Assembly: GCF_003334355.1 (NCBI RefSeq)
Contig: NZ_QOWP01000010.1
From: Escherichia coli
GTDB lineage: Bacteria > Pseudomonadota > Gammaproteobacteria > Enterobacterales > Enterobacteriaceae
Strand: one strand, 5' to 3'
Length of the DNA: 64,000 nt
Both the position numbers and the translations under genes were made by a program. Below the pieces are notes generated by a model, which worked only from the letters and a program-made list of their open reading frames with translations, did no database searches and had not been told where the DNA came from. The first letter of the stretch is position 1. The number at the start of each line of letters is the position of its first letter. Of the stretch, positions 27,599 to 27,727 are shown one piece after another.

Positions 27599-27616
27599 CA
27601 GAGGGTTTTACTCATT

Positions 27617-27679
27617 CTGTTCATATCTGTTCATATTCTGCCGTAAGCCGTTCATCCTGACCAGTGCCGCTGTTCATAT
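27617..27679 (+). promoter_or_regulatory. torCAD promoter tor boxes (four decamer repeats, TorR binding sites)
   Basis: CTGTTCATAT at 27617-27626, 27627-27636 and 27670-27679, plus variant CCGTTCATCC at 27648-27657, in the torR-torC divergent intergenic region. Confidence 0.8.
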
Positions 27680-27727
27680 TTGCTCATTAAGATCGCTTCA
27701 CTAAACCATAATTTTACAGGGGCTATT

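Follow-up and report, generated by a model that had tools for sequence, protein, structure and literature searches.

The tor-box array of the torR-torC divergent promoter region in an Escherichia coli contig: a known TorR operator with a conserved layout and a variable tandem

The stretch of Escherichia coli DNA analyzed here, referred to as the window, is 64 kb long and carries the tor genes, with torR and torC diverging from a short intergenic spacer that holds the entire regulatory array under study (Table 1). The product of torR was assigned as TorR by the NCBIfam equivalog model NF008034 (428.7 bits against a cut-off of 275), and its N-terminal domain matches PDB 1ZGZ, the TorR receiver domain (3.8e-73). 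Full-length hits to ArcA, OmpR, PhoB, and others indicate that the receiver and winged-helix DNA-binding domains are both present, and relatives in the PDB include KdpE, BasR/PmrA, and PhoP, for which full-length structures have been solved, several of them deposited with DNA. These three relatives bind tandem direct repeats in a head-to-tail manner. NCBIfam equivalog models also place TorA downstream, and TorT and TorS upstream, of torR-torC. The names torR and torC appear in E. coli genome annotations as well; 451 bp around the spacer were found in 5417 of 5426 complete E. coli genomes and were annotated torR/torC every time. Read on the minus strand, 27596-27598 forms the torR start codon; the torC ATG lies at 27728-27730, where the annotated K-12 start aligns, preceded by a Shine-Dalgarno sequence (AGGGG, 27718-27722). 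The span delimited in an earlier note on this DNA is, by these ORF boundaries, exactly the divergent spacer.

Several features of the surrounding DNA are recorded here in their own right. The torT (+) and torR (-) genes are convergent, and their 3' ends overlap by 28 bp (26906-26933), like those of K-12. The torS-torT spacer (25822-25905) is 82 bp, the same as in K-12, and the HK022 attachment site located there (PMC6814406) is therefore unoccupied. As called mechanically, the torS ORF begins at a GTG at 25822, whereas the experimentally confirmed torS start is an ATG downstream of that position (PMC6814406). Elsewhere in the window, Rfam and ARAGORN searches identified a cspA-type thermoregulator leader (20949-21371, +), naRNA4 between torD and cbpM (32054-32132, -), ES036 (38009-38051, -), Ysr251 (55494-55687, -), and a tRNA-Ser (UGA) (2043-2130, -).

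Table 1. Features of the tor locus, in window coordinates.
Feature	Position	Strand	Description
torR	26906..27598	-	ORF, 230 aa, OmpR/PhoB-family response regulator
torR-torC divergent intergenic spacer	27599..27727		129 bp; holds the whole regulatory array
tor box 1	27617..27626	+	CTGTTCATAT; half of the tandem high-affinity TorR site
tor box 2	27627..27636	+	CTGTTCATAT; other half of the tandem high-affinity site
torR promoter (predicted)	27635..27663	-	-35 TGGTCA (27663..27658), 17-bp spacer, -10 CAGAAT (27640..27635)
tor box 3	27648..27657	+	CCGTTCATCC; low-affinity, 7/10 to consensus
tor box 4	27670..27679	+	CTGTTCATAT; promoter-proximal, ends 8 bp before the predicted torC -10
torC -10 (predicted)	27688..27693	+	TAAGAT; position conserved across genera
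torC	27728..28900	+	Pentahaem c-type cytochrome, 390 aa, first torCAD gene; NCBIfam NF011606, 884.1 bits, well over the cut-off
torA	28900-31446		Follows torC; NCBIfam equivalog model

The spacer contains four decamers, all of them direct repeats in one orientation between the divergent genes. Three perfect copies, which the earlier note had read at 27617, 27627, and 27670, are indeed exact matches on the plus strand within the spacer, and neither strand of the 64-kb window holds another. Shuffling led to an expectation of 0.13 such matches per window, and none of 100 dinucleotide-preserving shuffles of the window gave three. The variant decamer at 27648 was likewise read correctly and occurs once in the window. 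Taken by its sequence alone, however, this third box is not above chance, as the window has 472 matches of at least 7/10 to the consensus, and the probability of such a match falling between box 2 and box 4 is P ~0.085; box 3 is credible because of its positional conservation across genera and because of published experiments. Tandem Repeats Finder (TRF) called a period-10 array at 27612-27636. Other kinds of signal were sought in the spacer, including inverted repeats by repeat search, of which none were found, and members of known RNA families by an Rfam gathering scan, which returned none. Similarly, single-strand DNA folding gave no hairpin or cruciform (z = +1.59, less structured than shuffled sequence).

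The geometry of the array is regular. Successive boxes start 10, 21, and 22 bp apart, which puts them at offsets of 0/10/31/53 from the start of box 1, and at 10.5 bp per turn all four start within +/-0.5 bp of a common helical face. The spacing from box 2 to box 3 reportedly must hold the sites on a single face of the helix. Boxes 1 and 2 are the only contiguous ones, and boxes 3 and 4 are single decamers, each placed two turns past the previous box. The description of the array as two pairs is thus apt as a functional grouping into high- and low-affinity sites, but not as geometry. In the same way, the first pair does lie on the torR side of the spacer, but it does not abut the torR start, from which box 1 is separated by 18 bp (27599-27616).

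Comparison with the published torCAD promoter region, which the earlier note had proposed as a check, found identity to K-12 over all four boxes. In the alignment to K-12 MG1655 (NC_000913), 164 of 166 positions are identical, including every box and inter-box position, and the two substitutions (T for C at 27714 and C for T at 27723) fall in the torC leader, past the last box. The array therefore matches the characterized K-12 tor boxes (Simon et al. 1995 Mol Microbiol 17:971; Ansaldi et al. 2000 J Bacteriol 182:961) in sequence, order, orientation, spacing, and flanking genes. Being identical to K-12 through all of the boxes, the window carries the very element that was used in the published experiments.

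Those experiments speak directly to the identity of the binding protein. Published box sequences are 5'-CTGTTCATAT-3' for tor boxes 1, 2, and 4 and 5'-CCGTTCATCC-3' for box 3, and in gel shifts TorR bound boxes 1, 2, and 4 and did not bind box 3 alone (PMC9239176). According to the same article, which cites Simon et al. 1995, binding at box 3 depends on box 4. In genomic SELEX, the sole TorR peak in the whole K-12 genome was the torR/torCAD spacer; the peak was seen with and without acetyl phosphate and was higher with it (PMC5934670). Consistent with this, PMC5294996, citing Ansaldi 2000, states that phosphorylated and unphosphorylated TorR both bind the tor boxes in vivo. The earlier reading of the spacer as the classic TorR architecture is well founded on these box sequences and gel shifts, on the flanking TorR and TorC equivalogs, and on the identity with K-12. 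Its further suggestion, that the first pair allows autoregulation, holds as well and is here taken from the literature.

It could be argued that the repeats are targeted by a regulator other than TorR, such as ArcA or NarL. ArcA is the second-best family match of the TorR protein (216 bits) and its closest paralogue, and ArcA also binds direct repeats. In the torR leader, beside box 1, a NarL-like heptamer (TACTCAT, against the consensus TACYYMT) is found at 27609-27615, and NarL repression of torCAD is cited in PMC1805755. That heptamer, however, is one of 35 in the window, is probably there by chance, and lies outside the four boxes, while TorR itself shifts the boxes (PMC9239176) and has its lone genomic SELEX peak here (PMC5934670). 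Additional regulators could act besides TorR, not instead of it, and we regard the idea of a different principal regulator as very unlikely.

The layout of the array was also examined across genera. A species-representative genome collection (298 Gb) was scanned for CTGTTCATNNCTGTTCAT, a pattern with 16 specified bases, which returned at least 120 matches against an estimated ~140 chance matches; most of the matches listed were in unrelated genomes, and loci were sorted by tblastn with the TorR, TorC, TorT, and TorA of the window. At least ten of the matched loci are flanked by torR and torC homologues or sit immediately upstream of torC. These belong to E. coli, E. albertii, E. whittamii, Salmonella enterica diarizonae, Enterobacter ludwigii, three Edwardsiella species, Providencia vermicola, and Grimontia celer, a member of the Vibrionaceae whose TorC is 49% identical. 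A match in Shewanella surugensis, the sole Shewanella match among those listed, was not adjacent to tor genes and was set aside. The comparative set required the box1-box2 tandem and is accordingly biased toward taxa that keep it. Since the scan pattern demanded boxes 1 and 2 only, the presence of box 3, box 4, and their spacing constitutes an independent test.

The offsets 0/10/31/53 recur in nine of the ten taxa, spanning Escherichia, Salmonella, Enterobacter, Edwardsiella, and Grimontia. Box 1 matches at 10/10 or 9/10 and box 2 at 10/10 in all genera, both being part of the search pattern. Outside that pattern, box 4 has a match of at least 8/10 in all genera and is found at +53, or at +63 in Providencia, and box 3 is found at +31 in nine of the ten taxa and at +41 in Providencia. 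The GTTCAT core of box 3 is kept in all six genus representatives (GTTCAC in Edwardsiella anguillarum). When a single representative of each genus is taken, box 3 and box 4 have column identities of 0.87 and 0.93, compared with 0.68 and 0.74 in the two inter-box spacers and 0.50-0.55 in the flanks outside the array. A clear example is seen in the comparison of Grimontia with E. coli, where boxes 3 and 4 agree at 7/10 and 8/10 and the spacers at only 3/11 and 2/12. In P. vermicola, the box offsets upstream of torC are 0/10/41/63, and a degenerate unit, TTATTCACAT, occupies +20; the layout is that of E. coli plus exactly 10 bp, or one helical turn.

The Grimontia celer locus deserves separate mention. 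Its sequence reaches 248 bp upstream of torC, and a full four-box array is present there, at positions 52-114 of the locus. In Vibrionaceae, torR is reported to be divergent from torD, not torC (PMC1805755). The occurrence of the full array at Grimontia torC, in a family in which torR reportedly faces torD, suggests a requirement for the tandem pair in activation as well as in autoregulation.

The same comparison bears on whether there are more TorR half-sites than four. Box 4 together with the adjacent TTGCTCATTA (27680-27689) could form a second tandem dimer site similar to box1-box2, and a further degenerate unit, TTACTCATTC, could be counted beside box 1, at 27608. A repeat search aligned CTGTTCATATCTGTTCAT (27617-27634) with CTGTTCATATTTGCTCAT (27670-27687) at 16/18 and TTTACTCATT (27607-27616) with TTTGCTCATT (27679-27688) at 9/10, and tandem dimers are the general binding form of OmpR/PhoB-family regulators. 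Beside box 4, the extra unit nevertheless has a TCAT core that is kept within Escherichia only: the same position reads TTGCGGAATA in Salmonella, TTAATCAATA in Edwardsiella, and TTGCTGAATA in Providencia, and is unrelated in Enterobacter and Grimontia. What is conserved at that position is the TAAGAT -10 hexamer, which the candidate fifth box overlaps. Moreover, the unit matches the consensus at 6/10 and is polymorphic within E. coli (G/A at 27682). As general TorR sites, the degenerate fifth and zeroth boxes (27680-27689 and 27607-27616) were rejected, their TCAT core not being kept outside Escherichia, and additional half-sites in E. coli itself seem improbable.

Promoter elements can be proposed around this array on comparative grounds. 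A consensus promoter and terminator scan of 27500-27850, at a threshold of 9/12, returned no sigma-70 site or terminator, so the promoters in Table 1 were derived by comparison among genera and remain predictions. A -10-like hexamer lies exactly 8 bp past box 4 in all six genera, among the matches listed, reading TAAGAT in E. coli, Salmonella, Edwardsiella, and Providencia, TAAAAT in Enterobacter, and TACTAT in Grimontia. Its column identity is 0.92, versus 0.65 and 0.50 for its two flanks. At the matching -35 position, TGCCGC (27665-27670) is a poor element, as would be expected for an activator-dependent promoter with its activator bound just upstream. The torC transcription start is predicted near 27700, which would give a leader of ~28 nt.

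On the opposite strand, the candidate torR promoter scores 8/12, under the scan threshold, and the TGACCA between box 3 and box 4 that would supply its -35 is kept in E. coli, Salmonella, Edwardsiella, and Providencia. This promoter would place the torR transcription start near 27628, inside box 2. The torR transcription start is reported to lie under the box1-box2 tandem. In the literature searched, no mapped transcription start was found for torC or torR. As a separate observation, torR has no obvious Shine-Dalgarno sequence, and its leader contains a 5-codon minus-strand ORF (ATGAGTAAAACCCTCTGA, encoding MSKTL*, 27598-27615) whose stop overlaps the torR start codon (TGATG). A role for this ORF as a translational-coupling device was considered and rejected, as it is confined to E. 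coli, E. albertii, and E. whittamii and is absent from Salmonella, Enterobacter, and Edwardsiella.

Within E. coli, 4411 of 5416 genomes (81%) carry the 73-bp array without any change. The commonest difference is a G to A change at 27682, just past box 4 and outside the boxes, which is common to E. albertii and E. whittamii. In one O169:H41 strain, box 3 reads CCATTCATCC, a G to A change within the core at the equivalent of 27650. Among 5417 complete genomes, most, including the window, have two copies of the tandem unit, and others form a short copy-number series at the equivalent of 27617-27636. A one-copy allele, found in at least three genomes (two O157:H7 and one O166:H15), lacks 10 bp and has one box where box1-box2 would otherwise be; published work on box deletions would predict poor inducibility for it. 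Three copies were counted in 53 records (~1%), defined as those that match a synthetic three-copy query perfectly in one piece, a few of them being duplicate records of a strain; they include the Shiga-toxin lineage O121:H19, and one was read directly in sequence. Finally, a single genome, that of strain EH2252, has four copies. The three-copy layout of E. coli is the same as that of Providencia. Changes in the tandem always involve whole 10-bp units, leaving the 21- and 22-bp steps from the final tandem box on to boxes 3 and 4 unaltered. Each copy step is one helical turn, and phasing to boxes 3 and 4 is therefore preserved. A different kind of allele is found in strain OkiPb01695, where a 43-bp deletion has its junctions exactly at box 2 and box 4 (the equivalent of 27627-27669). 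This deletion removes box 3 and the predicted torR -35, and sets the tandem pair directly at the torC promoter.

Variation of this kind invites a view of the decamers as a short tandem or dispersed repeat, made by slippage and lacking any sequence-specific function. The period-10 array called by TRF, the range of one to four tandem copies among E. coli strains, and the one genome with a 43-bp deletion between repeats are all in keeping with such an origin. Slippage accounts for the variation in copy number, however, and not for the existence of the boxes, whose offsets are fixed across six genera while the spacers diverge, whose array is identical in 81% of E. coli genomes, and for which the literature provides direct binding evidence. 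A functionless repeat is, in our judgment, vanishingly improbable, and for practical purposes both this explanation and that of a different regulator are ruled out by the binding and conservation data.

The copy-number series itself is a small side observation and is possibly new. A literature search for a tor-box VNTR found nothing relevant, a weak result given that the search term ‘torr’ also matches surnames. Tandem copy number is a natural polymorphism that, conceivably and with considerable doubt on our part, could tune torR autorepression and the level or noise of torCAD induction between lineages, with Providencia representing a fixed three-copy state in which the third box has decayed. 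The natural allelic series mirrors the spacing and deletion constructs that have been used on this promoter, and it could serve to probe the relationship between operator copy number and the strength of autoregulation.

Taken together, the sequence, position, orientation, and helical phasing of the boxes, their identity with K-12, and their conservation across genera, all of them observed here, indicate that the array is almost certainly the TorR operator/activator array of the E. coli torR-torCAD divergent promoter region, and nothing contradicts this explanation. With TorR binding, its independence of phosphorylation, and autoregulation drawn from the literature, the following sequence of events can be envisioned. 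TorR, phosphorylated or not, would occupy the high-affinity tandem of boxes 1 and 2 (27617-27636), which would overlie the start of the torR transcript, thereby blocking RNA polymerase and leading to torR self-repression. When TMAO-bound TorT triggers TorS, TorR would become phosphorylated. Binding at boxes 3 and 4 is reported to be cooperative, and additional TorR~P may thus be expected to spread cooperatively from the box1-box2 anchor to box 3 (27648), a weak site, and box 4 (27670), which share a DNA face with box 2 and are two and four helical turns away from it. From box 4, which ends 8 bp upstream of the predicted torC -10 and would replace a usable -35, TorR~P would then recruit RNA polymerase and switch on torCAD.

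As the earlier note had stated, the feature is already known: base for base, it is the array of characterized K-12 tor boxes, the same element in another E. coli strain. A classic two-component regulatory region was correctly recognized, and as an annotation the finding adds nothing new by itself. Its modest value is rather one of calibration, in that the raw sequence allowed a correct reading of a regulatory architecture. To this, the present work adds a comparative map in which the 0/10/31/53 layout, with a -10 hexamer 8 bp past box 4, extends from Escherichia to Vibrionaceae.

Beyond K-12, the closest described system is the torR-torC region of Salmonella enterica (PMC9239176), which has the same four box sequences at 0/10/31/53 and TAAGAT past box 4. 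The Salmonella spacers and torR leader do differ, with 9/20 positions identical upstream of box 1 and 7/11 between boxes 2 and 3. Arrays of a broadly similar kind are found with other members of the regulator family, including the pho boxes of PhoB and the hierarchical OmpR sites at ompF and ompC, where half-sites of ~10 bp are in direct repeat. In OmpR/PhoB-family sites, the promoter-proximal site replaces a poor -35, and strong sites fill before weak ones. The tor array differs from those of PhoB and OmpR in its recognition sequence and in that its high-affinity tandem doubles as operator for the divergent promoter of the regulator's gene. In addition, tor boxes 3 and 4 stand alone as single decamers separated by two helical turns, whereas PhoB and OmpR sites consist of contiguous pairs. 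Finally, the site upstream of torECAD in Shewanella is said to be a single tandem, TTCATA-N4-TTCATA. By that account, it shares the TTCATA core and the 10-bp tandem with the array described here, and differs from it in being one tandem rather than a four-box array.
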